Of a stretch of DNA of 53,496 nucleotides, positions 5,676 to 45,440 are shown one piece after another. Below the pieces are notes generated by a model. That model had not been told where the DNA came from and searched no databases. It saw nothing but the letters and a program-made list of their open reading frames with translations. Source of the stretch: an uncultured Alphaproteobacteria bacterium (GTDB lineage Bacteria; Pseudomonadota; Alphaproteobacteria; RF32; CAG-239); assembly GCA_944392325.1 (NCBI GenBank), contig CALXWI010000003.1, forward strand, positions 1 through 53,496. Direction: 5' to 3'. Positions within the stretch are counted from its first letter, which is position 1, and each line of letters opens with the position of its first letter. The position numbers and the translations under genes are program-made.

Positions 5676-7360
5676 TAAAGGTAATCCTCCGGTCTAACCT
5701 CATCAATTTGTTCAGGAGAGATGTATTGTTCAGCATATTCCATATAAACCTCATTGGTGATGAATACGCGATATAAATCAGGATCAATATGGCCGCTGTT
5801 TTTCATCTCTTTCATAATGGAGAGGACTTCGCTTAGCTTTTTAGGTTCTTTATAAGGGCGGTCATTGGAAGTTAGAGCCTCGAAAATATCAGCAATAGCC
5901 ATAATCTTGGCCGGTATGGACATTTGGTCGCCGGTGAGGCCGTTGGGGTAGCCTTTGCCATCAATACGTTCGTGATGGGCGCCGGCGTATTCAACCACAT
6001 TGGACAGCTCTTTGGGGAAATGAATGGCTTTGAGCATATCAATCGTAACAACGATATGTTCGTTGATTTTTTCTCTTTCTTCCTTATTAATCGTACCTTT
6101 GCGAACTTCTAAGTTATAGAGCTCGCCGTGATTGTAGCCCTTGCTTAAGTGGTCTTCGCGGTTTTGGAGCAGGCTTTCATAACTGGGGTTGCGGTATAAA
6201 TCCATGTCTTTGATGTTGTCGCGCTCTGCCCATGACAAGCCTTTGGTGCGGTCAAAATAACGTATAAATTGGATTTGGCTTAACTCCTCAAGACGTTTGA
6301 TATCAGCATCACTTAATGGGGTATCGCCGGTGTTACAACGCGCAATAAAGTCAAAGTCTTCTTCTAAGTGTTTAACTTTATTTACAAATTCGGCTTGCAA
6401 AGATTCTTTGTCTTGCTCCGGTGCAGCAAGGCGCTTTTTGAGGTATTCGATATGGGCGTCGCGACGCAAAATCTCAAAACGACTGCGGATTTCGTGAATG
6501 CGGTTGTAAATGGTTTCTAGCTTGGTGGCTTTGTCAACAATATATTCCGGAGTGGTGACTTTGCCGCAATCGTGCAGCCATGAGGCGATGTTGAGTGCGT
6601 ACCAGTCATCGCGGCTCATTTCAAAGTTTTTGAGAGGTCCGCTGTCTTGTTGGACAGCGGCGGTGGTCAGCATACGGGCGATAACCGGTACTCTTTGGCA
6701 ATGGGCTCCGGTATATGGTGATTTAGCGTCAATAGCTCGAGCTAAAACCTCAATAAAAGATTCCAGAAGTTGGTTGTAGGCGCCTTTAAGACGGCGGTTC
6801 TCAATCGTGATACCAATGAGCGCGCAGATAGACTGTAATGTGCGTTGCATATCTTGGGTGAAAGAGATGGTTTTGCCGCTTTCATCTTTGGCATTGATGA
6901 ATTGGATTATACAAATGGTTTCACCTCGGCGGTTGACTATCGGCAGAGTTAGGCCGGAAACCGACATATAGTTGTATTCGTTATCAATCTCTTGAAACAG
7001 AGAGTTGTCGTAGCGGTTGTCACCGTAGATGTTGGCGGTGTTGATGATTTCGTGATTGAGGGCGGAGCTTTCAACTAATGATTTGTTCTTTTTGTTTTTG
7101 AGGTCGGGAAGATAAATACTGGGATAAAGTGAGAGGTTGTCGCTGCCGATTTTATGCAACCCGATGCTGGTGATGCGGCTGAGCTCTAAGGACATAAAGT
7201 CATCGTTGTTGACGGAGTAGAGAAAGCAGCCGTCGGCACGGCACAGAGATTGTGCAAACTCCAGTACCCTTTTGAGTGCCGTATTGTAGTCTTTTTCTGA
7301 GAGAATCGTGTTGTTTAATTCAAGCAGATTGGACAAGATTGAACCATTGATTTCAGCCAC
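5675..7360 (-). CDS. GAF + HD-GYP c-di-GMP phosphodiesterase
   Basis: N-terminal GAF-like region; LHDCGK, HHERIDGKGYP, ADIFEALT..RPYK motifs. Confidence 0.9.
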   Translation of the reverse strand: MAEINGSILSNLLELNNTILSEKDYNTALKRVLEFAQSLCRADGCFLYSVNNDDFMSLELSRITSIGLHKIGSDNLSLYPSIYLPDLKNKKNKSLVESSALNHEIINTANIYGDNRYDNSLFQEIDNEYNYMSVSGLTLPIVNRRGETICIIQFINAKDESGKTISFTQDMQRTLQSICALIGITIENRRLKGAYNQLLESFIEVLARAIDAKSPYTGAHCQRVPVIARMLTTAAVQQDSGPLKNFEMSRDDWYALNIASWLHDCGKVTTPEYIVDKATKLETIYNRIHEIRSRFEILRRDAHIEYLKKRLAAPEQDKESLQAEFVNKVKHLEEDFDFIARCNTGDTPLSDADIKRLEELSQIQFIRYFDRTKGLSWAERDNIKDMDLYRNPSYESLLQNREDHLSKGYNHGELYNLEVRKGTINKEEREKINEHIVVTIDMLKAIHFPKELSNVVEYAGAHHERIDGKGYPNGLTGDQMSIPAKIMAIADIFEALTSNDRPYKEPKKLSEVLSIMKEMKNSGHIDPDLYRVFITNEVYMEYAEQYISPEQIDEVRPEDYL

Positions 7361-17318: not shown

Positions 17319-17564
17319 TTAGCGTTTTATATGTTGGGTGATTTTGATGTCAATATCGCAATCAAGTGAATGGAGGTAGCTATAAAGTGTATCAAGTGAT
17401 ATGTTCTTGATGGCATTGCTATATTCCATTTTGAAGATTTTGTGCGGAGATAGGCAAGGGTTTTCTTGGGAGATTTGCTCATAACAACGGCCGCAAGCTA
17501 CTCGGCAATCTATAAGTTTGCGGCGGAGGTTTTTATAAAATTTTTGGCTGGTTGCATTTTTCAT
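17319..17564 (-). CDS. Small XRE/Cro-like helix-turn-helix protein
   Basis: LRRKLIDCR...YEQISQE..LSPHKIFKME...NISLDTLYSYLHSLDCDIDIKI pattern; AGGAG SD. Confidence 0.65.
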   Translation of the reverse strand: MKNATSQKFYKNLRRKLIDCRVACGRCYEQISQENPCLSPHKIFKMEYSNAIKNISLDTLYSYLHSLDCDIDIKITQHIKR

Positions 17565-17752
17565 TATTATTAGCTCCTGATGTTTTTTTAGCTATAAAAA
17601 AACCGTCCAAGCAGGTTAAACAAGGACGGGGAGCTCAAAAACTGCTAAACGACAGTCGCCGTTATTCAACATATTACCGGCACTCCCCGAAAGGGGAGAA
17701 AATTTCGTTTAGAGGTGTTTTTGAGGCACCGCGGCCGGTCCTTCCGACTGCA
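17565..17752 (-). ncRNA. Structured 5' leader RNA upstream of HTH gene
   Basis: Reverse complement aligns with 38955-39190 (GCAGTCGG..CCGGCCGCGGTGCCTCAAAAACACC ... GGAGTGCCGGTAA ... GAATAACGGCGACTG ... CAGTTTTTGAGCTCC) with compensatory changes; terminator CCGTCC/GGACGG + U-run. Confidence 0.8.
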
Positions 17753-17810: not shown

Positions 17811-17837
17811 AAAACCGAGGTGATGGCCTCGGTTTTT
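17811..17837. terminator. Bidirectional intrinsic terminator
   Basis: AAAACCGAGG-TGATGG-CCTCGGTTTT. Confidence 0.7.
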
Positions 17838-18432
17838 ATGACATACTCAAAACTCTTTTTAACTGGTCTGAGTTTTTGGTGATTATCTCCTGAAAGCGCT
17901 CATCTTTTAAGATGTTAGTGTTCAGGAGCAAAATGCTCTCAAATAATAGGCGGATAGAATTTTCTTCCTGTCTGATACGCTCGGTATCCATGGTGACGGA
18001 GTAGAGGTATTCAAGGATTAATTCCTCATTGTCGCCTTGTTCATAAATATTTTCGGTTGTTAGCTGGGAATTGTTTTTGTGGTTTAATTCCCAATCTAAA
18101 TATATATGCACGGACGGGTTTAAATCAACCATATTGTCCAGCATATAATGCAGGTGAAACAGAGAAAACTCCTTCCACTCTTGATGGAGAGGGGTTTCGG
18201 CACATAATTGTTCCAGCTGTTTGAACACACGATTGGAACAATCACTACATTCAGTTTTACTGCAACTGCAGCAGGCCGCGAACATCTTAAAGATGTTATT
18301 TGAAAATAGCAAATCTAATAAAATCTTGGCTATTTTCAAATTGTCAGTCTTTTGTTCGTAGCAAAAAACTTCTTCCTCCTCCGGTATTATGGTTGAGATA
18401 ATATCGCAGAGGCAGTCCCTAATTTGCTTCAT
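17836..18432 (-). CDS. Hypothetical protein with Cys cluster (CCSCSKTECSDC)
   Basis: 198-aa ORF, AT-rich; no recognised family. Confidence 0.6.
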   Translation of the reverse strand: MKQIRDCLCDIISTIIPEEEEVFCYEQKTDNLKIAKILLDLLFSNNIFKMFAACCSCSKTECSDCSNRVFKQLEQLCAETPLHQEWKEFSLFHLHYMLDNMVDLNPSVHIYLDWELNHKNNSQLTTENIYEQGDNEELILEYLYSVTMDTERIRQEENSIRLLFESILLLNTNILKDERFQEIITKNSDQLKRVLSMS

Positions 18433-35060: not shown

Positions 35061-35231
35061 TCAGGAGTGTTTGAGCTCGTGAGGAGGGGCGTTGCGGGCG
35101 GTCTTGAGTTCATAGAGAATCGAGGCCCAAACGATGGTGTAAATGACGCCTAACCATGCTTTCCACCAGATTAAAAAGGCACAGAAAGCAACCAATACGG
35201 CAATCCAAAATAAAATGTAAAACTGTTTCAT
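35061..35231 (-). CDS. Small membrane protein (56 aa), not in ORF track
   Basis: MKQFYILFWIAVLVAFCAFLIWWKAWLGVIYTIVWASILYELK...; ATGA overlap with upstream small ORF. Confidence 0.6.
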   Translation of the reverse strand: MKQFYILFWIAVLVAFCAFLIWWKAWLGVIYTIVWASILYELKTARNAPPHELKHS

Positions 35232-36072: not shown

Positions 36073-37740
36073 TTAGACTCCGTGTTTTCTCATAATTGCT
36101 TTTTGTTGAATGATGGAGAGAATGTTGCTTAAGGTCCAGTAGATGACTAAACCGGAAGCAAAATGACCCAGCATAAACATAAAAATCAGCGGCAAAAGGG
36201 CAAACATACGCGCTTGGTCTTTGTTGGTGGGCGCCGGATTGAGCTTTTGCTGAATATACATGGTGATACCCATAATTATCGGCCAAACACCAATATCAAG
36301 CAAGCCGGGAATCGGCAGATGGGTGATGACGGATAAGGTCAAGGGGTCTGGGGCTGAGAGGTCTTTTATCCAGCCGATGAACGGAGCATGGCGAATCTCA
36401 ATGGCGATATTCAAAACTTTATACAGCGAGAAGAATACCGGAATTTGGATTAACAATGGCAAGCAACCGGCCGCAGGGTTGATTTTTTCCTTACGGTAGA
36501 GTTCCATAGTTTCTTGCTGGAGTTTCATTTTATCATCGCCGTAGCGTTCCTGCAGGGTTTGCAGTTTGGGCTGCAGTTTCTTCATCTTCGACATACTCTC
36601 ATAAGACTTGCCGGCAATTGGGTACATAGCCAATCTCAGCAAGGCGGCAAATAGCAGAATTGCCCAGCCCATATTGCCAATGAGGTTATAGAGAAAATCA
36701 AGAATATAGAAAAACGGTTTGGTAAGGAAGTAGTACCAGCCAAAGTCAACGGCTAAGTCAAACTTGGGAATACCAAGCTTTTTGGCGTAGCGATCCAAAA
36801 GTTTGATTTCTTTGGCGCCGGCAAAAAAGCGGAGGTCGTTGCTGCCAATGCCACCGGCCGGAATGGTAGCGGCTTGGCCAAGGTAGTCAACCTGATAAGT
36901 GTTGCCGTCAAGGTTGCGGACTTTGATGTTGCCGGTTTGGGAATTGTTTAAGATAAAGGCGCTAAACCAATAGCGGTCGGAAAAACCAGTCCAGCCGCCG
37001 GTGGTGGTGAAGTCTTGGCTCTCACCTTGGTCGAGGTCTTTGTATTTGACCTCGTGCAGGGTGTCATCCATTACACCGCTGATGCCCTCATGGACAACGC
37101 TAGCCGAGCTGTTGCTCAAATCGGGCGTACGGGCAATCATCCCATAAGGATAGAGGGTGATGTTGCGGCCGGAGTTGTTCTCAACATTATCGCTGATTTT
37201 GAACATATAATTATCATCAACCGAGATAATGCGGACAAAGCGCAGTCCTTGTCCGTTGTCCCATTCAAGCGTGATGGGAGACTCAGGAGTGAGTTCAGAG
37301 CCTTTGAGGTTCCAGATAGTATTAGAATTAGGGAGTTTGAGCTTGGGGTCATTACTGAGCCAGCCAAACTCGGCATAATAAGGGTGAGCAGTTTGGCTTG
37401 GGCTTAAGAGTTCAACATCGGGGCTGTCAGAAGACAGGGTTTGTTTGTATTTATCAAGCAAGATGTCATCAAAACGGGCGCCTTTGAGGCTGATGGAGCC
37501 GCTGATGGAACTGTTGCTAAGCTTAACTCTGGGGGTTTTAGCTAAAGCTTGAGTGCTGTCTAAGGGTTGAGCGGGAGTTTGCTCATGGGCAGCAAGCGGT
37601 GCTGATTGGATGCTCTCAGGTGCAGTCAACGGAGCTTCAGGCTGAGTGGCCGGAAACAAATAGCCGCTGATGATGACAATGGCAACAGAAAGGATTATTG
37701 CCCAAATCAGGCCTTTAGGATTGTTATTTTCTTCTTCCAT
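36073..37740 (-). CDS. yidC: Membrane protein insertase YidC
   Basis: VDFGW, GCLPLLIQIPVFF, WIKDLSAPDP, GLVIYW. Confidence 0.96.
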   Translation of the reverse strand: MEEENNNPKGLIWAIILSVAIVIISGYLFPATQPEAPLTAPESIQSAPLAAHEQTPAQPLDSTQALAKTPRVKLSNSSISGSISLKGARFDDILLDKYKQTLSSDSPDVELLSPSQTAHPYYAEFGWLSNDPKLKLPNSNTIWNLKGSELTPESPITLEWDNGQGLRFVRIISVDDNYMFKISDNVENNSGRNITLYPYGMIARTPDLSNSSASVVHEGISGVMDDTLHEVKYKDLDQGESQDFTTTGGWTGFSDRYWFSAFILNNSQTGNIKVRNLDGNTYQVDYLGQAATIPAGGIGSNDLRFFAGAKEIKLLDRYAKKLGIPKFDLAVDFGWYYFLTKPFFYILDFLYNLIGNMGWAILLFAALLRLAMYPIAGKSYESMSKMKKLQPKLQTLQERYGDDKMKLQQETMELYRKEKINPAAGCLPLLIQIPVFFSLYKVLNIAIEIRHAPFIGWIKDLSAPDPLTLSVITHLPIPGLLDIGVWPIIMGITMYIQQKLNPAPTNKDQARMFALLPLIFMFMLGHFASGLVIYWTLSNILSIIQQKAIMRKHGV

Positions 37741-38590: not shown

Positions 38591-38919
38591 AACATTTCTC
38601 CGGTTAAATGGGAGGCCTAAGGCCTCGGTTATTATTATATTTATTTAAGTCTGCCAAAGGGCAGGCCTCGGAACGTTATGAGGTATATAGTTTTTTTTAT
38701 CTTTTGTCAACAAAAAACTGTGGAGAATGGCCAATTGGGGTGTCAACTGCTTTAGTCGCTGCCGCTTCTTTGCAGGTTAACAAACCTTCGCCTGTCGGCG
38801 AAAAACAATACACCGGATTGTTTTTCTATTCCAGCTCTACTAAGAGAGAGGACGCTGTGACTTGTTCCTTTTTTTCCTTATATTGAAAATCCAAAATTCG
38901 TGATTACATCAAAAACAGC

Positions 38920-38948
38920 TTGCGAAAGTTCTCTTATTGTGGTATTCT
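38920..38948 (+). promoter_or_regulatory. Sigma70-type promoter for leader RNA and Cys-rich gene
   Basis: TTGCGA-N17-TATTCT with extended -10 TG, 6 nt before leader P1. Confidence 0.6.
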
Positions 38949-38954
38949 GTTGAG

Positions 38955-39190
38955 GCAGTTGGGAAAACCGGCTGTGGTGTCTCAATAACACCAACAAGCG
39001 AAGTATCCACTATGGTGTGGAGTGCTGGTAAATAAGGATATTGCCTCTAACTTTGGGGTTACTGCCTTTGAGGTTTGCGATATGACGAATAACAGCGACT
39101 GCCTTGCTTGTGCAGTTATTGAGCTCCTCACCGCCTTAGTTTTCATAGCTAAAGCGGTGTTGTTTTAACAAAAAACGATGGAGCTTAGTT
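38955..39190 (+). ncRNA. Structured 5' leader RNA upstream of Cys-rich gene
   Basis: P1 38955-38975; P2 GGTGT-CTCAATA-ACACC; P3 ACAAGCGA/TTGCTTGT; GTTATTGAG complement of P2 loop; AGCTCC complementary to SD GGAGCT; terminator 39129-39166. Confidence 0.8.
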
Positions 39191-39946
39191 ATGAAAATTA
39201 AATTTTTACTCTTAGGGACTTCTCTGTCCTTTTTACCAACCTTATCTTTTGCTCAATGCGTAGAGACAACAAATTGTGAAACTCTAGGTTATACTGAAAT
39301 AACTTGTAACGGTGGCAAAGGTGTGAAGTGCCCGTTTGGAAACAAGTGGTTTTGTTTTGAAACCGAAGATGAATTTAAAACAAGACTCTGTCCTGAATTG
39401 GGCTTTACATTAGATTGTTCCGGAGAAAATCAAACCGGCAGTAGTTATAGTTGCAACGGAAAATATAATTATTGTAATTGTGCTGATGGTTATTATTGGA
39501 AAGAGGGGAAATGTGAGCGAACTAAACTGGGACAGAGTGGTGTGGTCGGAGATTTGTATTATTGCAATGGTGTTGTTGTTGGAGTAAAGGCGCCAGGGAT
39601 GGATTTTTATATCGCTATGAAAGATTTGGGGAATATGAATTGGGAGGGGGCTGTCAATAGCTGTCAAAGTTACATCTTTTGCAATATCTGTGATAAGTTA
39701 AATGGAGCTTTGCCGACTAAGGCTCAATTGTTAACAATGTATAATAATAAGGTTTCTTTGAACAGTTTATTGTTAAGAAATGGTGGCATGGAATTGACAG
39801 AATCCTATTATCGGTCGAATACCCTCAGTAGCTCTTATGGTTATCACTATATTGTGAGTATGTCTGATGGTGATGTGAAAGACAACTATCTTGGCAATGA
39901 TGATCGTGGCTATTACTCTGTTCGGCCGGTATTGATGGTTTATTAG
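39191..39946 (+). CDS. Cys-rich secreted protein with C-terminal DUF1566/C-type-lectin-like domain
   Basis: Signal peptide; N-terminus shared with 12016 protein; C-terminal MNW..A...C...LPT..QL...YY.S.T...YSVRPV. Confidence 0.8.
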   Translation: MKIKFLLLGTSLSFLPTLSFAQCVETTNCETLGYTEITCNGGKGVKCPFGNKWFCFETEDEFKTRLCPELGFTLDCSGENQTGSSYSCNGKYNYCNCADGYYWKEGKCERTKLGQSGVVGDLYYCNGVVVGVKAPGMDFYIAMKDLGNMNWEGAVNSCQSYIFCNICDKLNGALPTKAQLLTMYNNKVSLNSLLLRNGGMELTESYYRSNTLSSSYGYHYIVSMSDGDVKDNYLGNDDRGYYSVRPVLMVY

Positions 39947-40003: not shown

Positions 40004-40723
40004 TTAACGGCGGTCGCCAAACAGGCGCAGCAAAGCCAAAAACATATTGATAAAGTCAAGGTATAATTCCAAGGCTCCGGCAATGGCTTTGCGGGTCAAG
40101 GTGTCGCCATCATCATAGCTCATATAAATTTGGCGAATTTTTTGAGTGTCATAAGCCGTCAAGGCTGTAAAGGCAATTACGGCCAAAATGGAAATGGCAT
40201 AAGACAGCCCAGGGCTTGCCAAAAAGATATTAACGATGGAGGCGATGACGATACCCCATACGCCCATTATCATAAATGAACCCATTGAAGTTAAGTCTTT
40301 CTTGGTGGTGTAGCCATAAATACTCATGGAGCCAAACATGGCCGCCGTAATCAAGAAAATGCGGGCAACGCTGGCACCGGTATAGGCCAATAAAGTTGGG
40401 GTTAAAGATAAGCCCATAACGGCGGAAAAGCCCCAGAATACCATTTGGATTTGCTGGGTGGTGCCACGGTTAAGAACCCAACTAAAGGCAAAAACCATAA
40501 TCAGTGGGGCAAACAAAATCAGCCAGCCGAGAGCTGACATACTTACTTGGCCGGCAGCATTAACGCTGAAAAAAATGCGAATCAGCGGTGTGTTGAGGCA
40601 CAAAAAGGCGGCCAAAGCCGTAACGGCCAGACCTCCGGCCATAAAGTTGTAGACCTTGAGCATATAGTCCTTTAGGCCTTCATCCACAATGGTTTGGGCT
40701 TGGGTCTTGGTGGTTTCAAACAT
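40004..40723 (-). CDS. Bax inhibitor-1/YccA family membrane protein
   Basis: VYNFMA.GL, YGYTTKKDL, TAYDTQKI, LYLDFINMF. Confidence 0.92.
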   Translation of the reverse strand: MFETTKTQAQTIVDEGLKDYMLKVYNFMAGGLAVTALAAFLCLNTPLIRIFFSVNAAGQVSMSALGWLILFAPLIMVFAFSWVLNRGTTQQIQMVFWGFSAVMGLSLTPTLLAYTGASVARIFLITAAMFGSMSIYGYTTKKDLTSMGSFMIMGVWGIVIASIVNIFLASPGLSYAISILAVIAFTALTAYDTQKIRQIYMSYDDGDTLTRKAIAGALELYLDFINMFLALLRLFGDRR

Positions 40724-45363: not shown

Positions 45364-45440
45364 TGGCGTACCCGGAGGGATTTGAACCCACGACCCTCGG
45401 CGTCGGAGGCCGATACTCTATCCAACTGAGCTACGGGTAC
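45364..45440 (-). tRNA. tRNA-Arg(CCG)
   Basis: GTACCCGTAGCTCAGTTGGATAGAG...TCGGC-CTCCGAC-GCCGA...GGTTCAAATCC...CGGGTACGCCA; cloverleaf, encoded CCA; hairpin terminator 45331-45357. Confidence 0.95.

Follow-up and report, generated by a model that had tools for sequence, protein, structure and literature searches.

The subject of this report is a leader RNA encoded at positions 38955-39190 of the forward strand of a 53,496-nucleotide stretch of DNA from an uncultured alphaproteobacterium, which was analyzed at its full length and is called the window below. Several described regulatory RNAs resemble it in part. Transcription-terminating riboswitches and attenuators combine anti-antiterminator, antiterminator and terminator elements, and some also mask the Shine-Dalgarno (SD) sequence. 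The H-type pseudoknot riboswitches, among them SAM-II, preQ1-II and fluoride, have a hairpin loop whose partner strand immediately precedes the expression platform, and their pseudoknot helix is rich in A-U pairs. The RNAs of the c4/CI type come from the leader of the operon that they control and carry short loops with matched complements downstream. According to a passage in PMC8201110, c4 regulates the expression of Ant in phage P1. A survey of intergenic regions of the human microbiome (Fremin & Bhatt 2021, PMC8040213) mentions in its text 15 candidate structures, all unnamed, that lie no more than 25 bp upstream of HTH_XRE genes.

Like the terminating riboswitches, the RNA considered here is a 5' leader with a covarying sensor, one strand of which, the 3' arm of hairpin P4, can pair with the 5' arm of the terminator; an anti-SD and tandem units are also shared. 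Unlike those systems, it has no match in Rfam, the strand that would switch lies in the middle of the sensor (P4) rather than in its closing helix, one CUCC is both the anti-SD and part of the antiterminator, and up to about 25 units are found in a genome of 1.6 Mb. With SAM-II, preQ1-II and fluoride, compared through the Rfam scan, it has in common the loop-to-strand pairing just upstream of the platform and the A-U-rich helix, but here the pseudoknot is part of a larger five-helix domain, has no SD within it and matches none of the models. The resemblance to P1/P7 c4 and P4 CI, which had been pointed out from the sequence alone, lies in the leader-derived RNA, the loop complements within the same transcript, compensatory variants that could set specificity and one member in a prophage. 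This likeness is functional only; the covariance models do not match, there is one pair of loop and complement (designated key and lock) instead of two, and most copies are chromosomal and stand beside housekeeping genes. Moreover, whereas the loop complements of c4 cover the ribosome binding site (RBS), the lock lies 57 nucleotides (nt) upstream of the SD. The candidates of the microbiome survey share the association with HTH_XRE genes, seen here in most genera, but the survey text, on whose descriptions the comparison is based, gives no mechanism, pseudoknot or switch. The RNA may be among the bare candidates in the supplementary tables of that survey; full-text searches of the literature, which took in passages of the survey text, found no description of it.

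By mechanism the element is an attenuator, or riboswitch-like leader, and by family it matches nothing in Rfam. The reality of the structured RNA family is close to certain, and the probability that it is a previously undescribed kind of leader RNA, acting in cis as a riboswitch-like attenuator with two exclusive states, is estimated from the sequences at roughly 0.6. The feature picked out by an earlier, sequence-only reading is a real and conserved 5' leader, larger than had been supposed, although the number of copies and the identity of the toggle had to be revised. A scan of the whole window against Rfam 15 at the gathering thresholds returned only a tRNA. When the segment 38800-39300 was scanned at E ≤ 10, there were two chance-level matches, to a snoRNA model and an lncRNA model (E 6.6 and 8.1), and none to C4, c4-2 or c4-a1b1, in agreement with the earlier statement that no named family is recognizable.

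The leader RNA is about 120-170 nt long and consists of helices P1-P5 and a hairpin-loop pseudoknot, followed in order by an invariant AGCUCC, a terminator hairpin with its U-tract, a U/A hairpin and the SD (Table 1). In the copy at 38955-39190, copy 1, both the sequence and the fold confirm the proposed P1, P2 with its loop CTCAATA and P3-closed domain; the domain encloses P4 and P5. P5 of this copy carries an inserted hairpin of 49 nt. The segment that follows the domain contains CAGTTATTGAGCTCC at 39113-39127 (CAGU-UAUUGAG-CUCC). As had been claimed, it holds the complement of the P2 loop and that of the SD, and both are exact: GTTATTGAG (39115-39123) is complementary to 38981-38989 and AGCTCC (39122-39127) to GGAGCT (39180-39185). 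The copy 1 leader was more stable than all of its dinucleotide shuffles (z = -4.3, 0/200 as good).

Table 1 Positions of the leader elements and cargo genes of copies 1 and 2 in the window
Feature	Position	Strand	Remarks
Putative sigma-70-type promoter, copy 1	38920-38948	+	TTGCGA-17 nt-TATTCT; ends 6 nt before the RNA 5' end
P1 hairpin, arms GCAGUUGG / CCGGCUGU	38955-38975	+	Fold; 8/8 pairs changed on both sides somewhere among 82 copies
P2 hairpin GGUGU-CUCAAUA-ACACC	38976-38992	+	Loop 38981-38987 is the key; fold and covariation
P3 5' arm ACAAGCGA	38994-39001	+	Fast-varying between copies; columns covary 7/7 (20 copies), 8/8 (82 copies)
P4 hairpin UCCAC-UAUGGU-GUGGA	39006-39021	+	Fold, covariation; median hairpin energy -6.7 kcal/mol over copies
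X strand of the alternative (AT) helix, UGGUGUGGAGU	39013-39023	+	P4 3' arm plus GU; complementary to 39123-39133
P5 GCUG/CAGC	39024-39096	+	Alignments; 4/4 pairs covary; conserved A/U-rich internal loop (..AAAUAAG / CGAAUAA..)
P6 5' strand ACUG	39098-39101	+	Pairs with 39113-39116
P3 3' arm UUGCUUGU	39104-39111	+	Fold and covariation
P6 3' strand CAGU	39113-39116	+	Covariation over 82 copies
Lock UAUUGAG	39117-39123	+	Pseudoknot partner of the P2 loop
Anti-SD AGCUCC	39122-39127	+	Invariant over the 20 genome copies
Y strand of the AT helix, GCUCCUCACCG	39123-39133	+	Anti-SD plus first nt of the terminator 5' arm; sequence complementarity, covariation
Terminator-like hairpin CACCGC...GCGGUG, then UUGUUUU	39129-39166	+	Folds; hairpin itself 39129-39159
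U/A hairpin UUGUUUU-loop-AAAACGA	39160-39178	+	Minimum free energy fold; places the SD beside the anti-SD
SD GGAGCU	39180-39185	+	Sequence; cargo ATG at 39191
Cargo gene of copy 1, 251-amino-acid Cys-rich secreted protein	39191-39946	+	Signal peptide MKIKFLLLGTSLSF..AQC; one of about 18 paralogs
Copy 2 sensor domain, P1 to AGCUCC	17630-17751	-	Key CUCAAAA, lock UUUUGAG; P4 3' CGGGGAG complementary to CUCCCCG
Copy 2 P3 arms	17712-17705 / 17652-17645	-	Three pairs changed on both sides relative to copy 1
Copy 2 expression platform	17573-17629	-	Terminator hairpin CCGUCC..GGACGG, U-tract, SD AGGAGCU
Copy 2 cargo, 81-amino-acid protein	17319-17564	-	Clusters with small XRE-like helix-turn-helix cargo proteins of other genomes

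The structure was strongly conserved among the homologs. In the 20 copies of this genome 95.3% of the helix cells of the alignment were paired and 7/7 P3 columns covaried. In an alignment of 82 diverse copies from about ten genera, a standard pair was formed in 95.7% of the cells; shuffles gave 72.5% and slid controls 32-46%. Both sides had changed in 36 of the 42 pairs, none of 500 shuffles scored as high, and every helix covaried. This alignment was fitted to a model that holds P1-P5, so that the counts for P1-P5 favor the structure; the pseudoknot and P6 lie outside the model. Covariation over the 82 copies thus supports a conserved sensor domain of the kind found in riboswitch-like attenuators. 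Its junctions and loops are nearly invariant, and about 80 non-helical positions scarcely differ between paralogs whose proteins have diverged. An extension of P5 proposed by RNAalifold, AGU:ACU, may exist but gains no support: 92% of its cells were paired, its columns hardly varied, and values as high as those observed occurred in 38-43 of 500 shuffles. A second RNAalifold proposal, an extended nested helix between the P2 5' arm and CUCC, was rejected in favor of the AT helix described below; as we read the alignment, its apparent covariation with the first nucleotide after CUCC was confined to this genome and failed in other genera. The open reading frames (ORFs) inside the leader (39022-39168 on the forward and 38982-39146 on the reverse strand) span the fast-varying compensated helices, an observation that bears on the idea of leader-peptide attenuation.

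In the 20 genome copies every cell of the 7-bp helix between the key and the lock was paired and three columns covaried; in the 82 copies 96.1% of its cells were paired, with covariation in five of its seven columns. Covariation therefore shows that nucleotides of a hairpin loop are paired with a downstream single strand, as in an H-type pseudoknot, and RNAalifold recovered this pairing independently, together with P3, P4 and P5. A further short helix, P6 (ACUG:CAGU), encloses just the 3' arm of P3, from which linkers of 0-3 nt separate it. Over the 82 copies 99.4% of its cells were paired and two columns were changed on both sides, from U-A to C-G in five rows and from G-C to A-U in one; a distant homolog in genome G175 adds a change from A-U to C-G.

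The alternative pairing that underlies the proposed switch was missed by the sequence-only reading. The P4 3' arm and the next two nucleotides (GGNGGAGU) are complementary to GCUCC and the 3-7 nt with which the terminator 5' arm begins. This AT helix was scored on a MAFFT alignment of the 82 copies that was fitted to no structure. Columns 93-100 were paired with columns 228-235 in 74-82 of the 82 rows at seven of the eight pairs and, at the eighth, in all 76 rows with letters. The central pair occurred in six types (U-A 29, C-G 18, G-C 12, A-U 8, U.G 7 and G.U 3, with 5 unpaired), and 41 of its cells were changed on both sides. None of 500 shuffles reached the observed score, and the slid controls were 37-56% paired. 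When anchored on GGAG:CUCC, at least six contiguous AT pairs were found in 68 of the 82 copies, with a median of 8 for self compared with 4 for non-self combinations; eight copies of genus g10 were mis-anchored by the script yet carry GGAGGA(UG):(CA)UCCUCC. The helix covaried even between neighboring units of one tandem array. The median energy of the AT duplex was -15.9 kcal/mol, compared with -6.7 kcal/mol for the P4 hairpin, and AT was the stronger of the two in every copy (82/82); controls with a shuffled downstream tail averaged -10.9 kcal/mol. In copy 1 the duplex had an energy of -15.4 kcal/mol with one U.U mismatch.

AT extends 3-7 nt into the downstream hairpin, which begins 0-3 nt after AGCUCC in most copies. 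Because the strands are shared, the AT helix, on the sequence, precludes P4, the base of the terminator and the anti-SD:SD helix. The helices, their covariation and this exclusion through shared strands are observed in the alignments, and they include the arrangement typical of attenuators, in which antiterminator and terminator helices compete for a strand (AT with the terminator 5' arm, AT with P4). The switch had been attributed to the P2 loop and its complement. That pairing exists and is backed by covariation. The key/lock helix seems, however, to have a structural role, as a pseudoknot that can form in either state, and not to be the toggle, which is probably the P4 3' strand, the element with a conserved, covarying alternative partner.

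The expression signals around the RNA were also conserved. A -35/-10-like pair stood at the same distance in 76 of the 80 copies with enough upstream sequence, and 78 of 82 copies had a hairpin (≤ -7 kcal/mol) followed by at least six T in 9 nt, criteria that we set ourselves. The promoter and the terminator had both been proposed for copy 1, where TTGTTTT follows the hairpin, and the support for both, as putative signals, comes from this conservation among homologs; simple scanners called neither at the window copies. Among the 75 copies that possess an SD and a start codon, 66 can form all 6 bp between the anti-SD and the SD, an SD-masking helix such as riboswitch-like attenuators possess. 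The pairing, already suggested for copy 1, covaries: position 2 was G-C in 56 copies, A-U in 8, G.U in 5 and C-G in 2, as in AGCUCC:GGAGCU compared with AACUCC:GGAGUU. A UUGUUU tract and an AAACA tract both precede the SD in 66/75 copies. The orientation of the RNA is fixed, with an SD and a start codon following in 75 of the 82 copies. In some loci (L027 from about 1627, L028 downstream of 1501 on the minus strand, and partly L034) the terminator loop holds an insert of about 125 nt between GCCUGCC and GGCAGGC-UUUUGUUU. Its near identity between two genomes suggests that a short element, mobile or repeated, has landed in the terminator hairpin.

These features suggest the following mechanism. 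Each unit would have its own promoter, from which the RNA would start at P1. The sensor is about 120 nt long; P1 and P2 precede a three-way junction, closed by P3 around P4 and P5, and the lock of the key/lock pseudoknot lies just 3' of P3. In the expression platform the anti-SD, AGCUCC, comes first, then a GC-rich hairpin and its UUUUGUUUU tract, next an A-tract pairing back to the U-tract, and finally the SD. In the OFF state P3 and P4 would be closed and the terminator hairpin would form; in any read-through RNA, AGCUCC would mask the SD. In the ON state GGNGGAGU would leave P4 and pair with GCUCC and the beginning of the terminator 5' arm, undercutting the terminator and freeing the SD, while the 4-bp P6 would replace P3, so that P6, the pseudoknot and AT would lie on one continuous 3' strand. 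Candidates for tipping the balance are a small molecule, an ion or a protein bound at the conserved junctions. Termination and translation would then respond to the switch, presumably in the direction given here.

Several observations weigh against this mechanism. Energy models limited to nested pairs favored the P3+P4 state over the AT state by 1.3-21 kcal/mol in each of the 11 leaders modeled, both at the decision point and at full length, so the AT state must be kinetic or stabilized by an effector. In five of the 82 copies, the subgroup of copy 1, AT is reduced to 4 bp, a U.U mismatch and 3 bp. P6 and the 8-bp P3 cannot, we infer, form together, an argument from steric and geometric considerations rather than measurement. 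As the copies are related and not independent, the shuffle statistics overstate the significance. The simple consensus scanner called a promoter at neither window copy, missing that of copy 1 because only 8 of 12 positions match, and a stricter simple scanner called no terminator at either. No RNA sequencing run was found to contain the region 38850-39650; five DNA or unknown-type runs contained 0.20-0.27 of the words sampled from it. The cargo genes, which encode XRE regulators and Cys-rich secreted proteins, suggest no metabolite. Lastly, tandem units without an ORF fit an RNA gene as well as a leader. Such arrays of promoter-RNA-terminator units, four in G083 (L092 149-1023), two in L027 (1293-1626) and two in L037 (1501-1842), precede a single XRE gene and their inner units have no ORF.

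Searches with nhmmer found 20 full-length copies and one fragment at a contig end in the 1.53-Mb genome (83 contigs, GC 43.7%). A first covariance model, built from these 20 copies, recovered 20/20 of them. Of 41 relatives it matched 21; in the same family 20 genomes out of 24 were positive, and none of the 16 sampled from other families. Among 151 genomes sampled from the order it gave 612 matches in 89 genomes and in 16 of 20 genera, with differences between genera (matched genomes, for example: g11 0/19, g7 8/8, g8 9/9). A second model, built from the 82 diverse copies, was applied to 150 other genomes sampled from the class. One further family (G234) yielded two strong matches, and two more (G216 and G175) yielded weak ones; on inspection, the weak distant matches retained the key/lock, P3, P5-loop and AT features. 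AT, key/lock and P6 complementarity was preserved in the homologs G234 and G175. Five genomes of the same family that had no match were still negative with the second model. The G175 homolog lies in the early region of a Mu-like prophage (L089 1-3190), in the order DUF3164, RNA, Bro-N-like gene, GemA and Mor; the Bro-N-like/HTH protein has 186 amino acids and falls below the Pfam cut-off.

If the riboswitch-like interpretation is correct, the RNA would constitute a large uncharacterized regulatory class, with hundreds of copies in most genera of one family of small-genome uncultured Alphaproteobacteria, and each copy would gate an XRE regulator or a secreted Cys-rich protein. The identity of the effector would expose the signal that controls a whole regulon in organisms that have never been grown. 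Since the switch (P4, AT and terminator, together with the masking of the SD) is written in the sequence, it is directly testable.

One part of the RNA behaved differently from the remainder. Among the 20 genome copies there are 19 distinct P3 arms; copies identical at 80/80 other aligned positions share only 4/7 or 1/7 P3 positions, and among the 29 pairs of copies with at least 95% identity over the remaining positions, P3 identity averages 47%. P3 also differs between the units of one tandem array. The variation is concentrated in the long-range helices (P3, key/lock and P5), whereas the local hairpins and the loops are uniform. Alternative explanations of the P3 divergence are short-tract gene conversion that spares helices with distant arms and selection against cross-pairing between copies. 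P3, set against the rest of the RNA, is a natural experiment on the evolution of long-range helices in a multigene family.

The foremost alternative, itself unlikely, is that each unit is the gene of a trans-acting small RNA of the phage-immunity type, like P1/P7 c4 or P4 CI. Its product would be the terminated RNA of about 170-190 nt, whose key loop, or P3 3' arm displayed in the loop of P6, would pair with transcripts carrying a matching lock or P3 arm; the keys and the P3 'barcodes' would set specificity classes or locus feedback. The sequence-only reading had likewise suggested a default transcript of about 170-210 nt that would end at the terminator, and pairing in trans that might occur between copies with matching keys. 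The presence of a promoter and a terminator in every unit and the ORF-less units of G083, L027 and L037 agree with such a gene, but the key and the lock always occur in the same transcript and are matched there (20/20), and the lock adjoins the anti-SD without overlapping the RBS. The difference in P3 between otherwise identical copies and the recurrence of a few key classes across genera (CUCAAAA, CUGAAAA, CUAAACA and CUAGAAA) could reflect specificity; the key variants would, however, also be explained if an A-U helix must contain one G-C pair, which we read as a structural constraint. The one distant member in a Mu-like prophage stands upstream of a Bro-N-like gene, and the antirepressor Ant of P1 is under c4 control according to the passage in PMC8201110, yet in the family of the genome studied here the RNA+XRE cassettes are flanked by housekeeping genes and are not part of prophages. 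The C4 families of Rfam gave no match even at E ≤ 10, blastn with 'distant' settings found no match to the leader in phages and plasmids or to the G175 prophage copy in phages, and a single degenerate pattern, which would miss divergent members, had 0 matches in viral contigs.

There is a slightly smaller chance that the leader is a constitutive structured 5' untranslated region (UTR) with no regulated switch, which would either set a fixed low level of read-through and translation or stabilize the mRNA, the AT complementarity being a by-product of GGAG- and CUCC-like elements. G-rich and C-rich arms (GGNGG/CCNCC) are indeed found repeatedly, in P2, P4, the terminator and the SD, from which a degree of cross-complementarity would be expected, and the tail-shuffled controls still averaged -10.9 kcal/mol; AT, however, covaries position by position, with six central pair types and a score that 0/500 shuffles reached, and its register is kept in distant families and between neighboring tandem units. 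The OFF fold is the thermodynamic ground state in the 11/11 leaders modeled and no effector is known, as would be expected of such a UTR, but the roughly 80 near-invariant non-helical positions in paralogs with diverged proteins exceed the constraint on a passive one.

The cargo genes bear on a third alternative. Among the cargo of the 82 copies, 33 proteins fall in one cluster of small XRE-type helix-turn-helix (HTH) proteins and 4 in a second HTH cluster, the members tested matching HTH_3 or HTH_31; XRE-type HTH proteins of 70-120 amino acids are the commonest cargo outside this genus. The Cys-rich family stands behind 15 loci and 17 short loci of this genome. The remaining cargo includes three proteins of 49-54 amino acids and one pilin-like protein, and several copies have no ORF. 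The frequency of XRE-type cargo (33/82, and 4 in the second cluster), and gene associations that are regulatory and cell-surface rather than metabolic, would suit a leader with a protein effector, for example the small XRE cargo itself in an autoregulatory role or another RNA-binding protein acting on the GGAG-rich P4 strand or the P5 loop. This is improbable; HTH_3 and HTH_31 are DNA binders, and in this genome 18 of the 20 copies precede Cys-rich secreted proteins and only one an XRE-like protein.

It is very unlikely that the P3 arms, and perhaps the key classes, serve as addresses that produce heritable, DNA-independent on/off switching. On this proposal the P3 3' arm would be shown as the loop of the P6 hairpin, and the abundant terminated RNA would pair in trans with the P3 5' arm of nascent transcripts from the same locus, keeping the sensor from closing and favoring the AT, or read-through, state. 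There would then be an RNA-based positive feedback at each of about 20 loci, switching single secreted Cys-rich proteins and XRE regulators. A repeat or mobile-element origin was rejected because the orientation to the cargo genes is fixed, a promoter is present and the helices covary.

The 20 copies of this genome precede 18 Cys-rich secreted paralogs, one longer protein with the same signal peptide and one 81-amino-acid protein, that of copy 2. The approximately 18 paralogs are 208-331 amino acids long (MKIKFLLLGTSLS..AQCVATQDCETLGYTETSCNGGKGVKCPFGNKWAC..), each has its own leader copy, and they are spread over contigs C13, C14, C16-C20, C22, C24, C31, C32, C44, C45, C64 and C74. A Pfam search assigned no family to any of them, and for the Cys-rich protein a protein atlas offered as leads only hypothetical proteins and an Lcl_C-bearing cluster at 0.91. 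The copy 2 cargo had no match in Pfam; its relatives match HTH_3/HTH_31. The 49-54-amino-acid cargo proteins (L035, L067 and L077, genome G022) share a KFKWENI motif and have no Pfam family. The pilin-like cargo (L033, genome G016) has 218 amino acids, a weak N_methyl match and a Cys-rich C-terminus.

Two leader copies are present in the window, not three as had been counted earlier, and both units stand among housekeeping genes. BLAST, two pattern searches, nhmmer and the covariance model found only 38955-39190 on the forward strand and 17751-17560 on the reverse strand. Two candidates for a third copy, 6111-6125 and 35065-35079, were rejected as chance matches with 3 mismatches inside unrelated sequence. 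Compensatory change, which had been claimed for three copies, is real between the two: an A-U pair of the key/lock helix is replaced by U-A, and three P3 pairs and one P5 pair are changed on both sides. Directly upstream of the copy 2 leader is a Cys-rich ORF of 198 amino acids with no signal peptide (17836-18432, reverse strand), which terminates in a terminator-like hairpin of its own at about 17835-17810. The other neighbors in the window are ordinary, namely a tRNA (45367-45440, reverse strand, 64.7 bits), YidC (36073-37740, reverse strand) and a membrane protein of the Bax1-I family (40004-40723, reverse strand).

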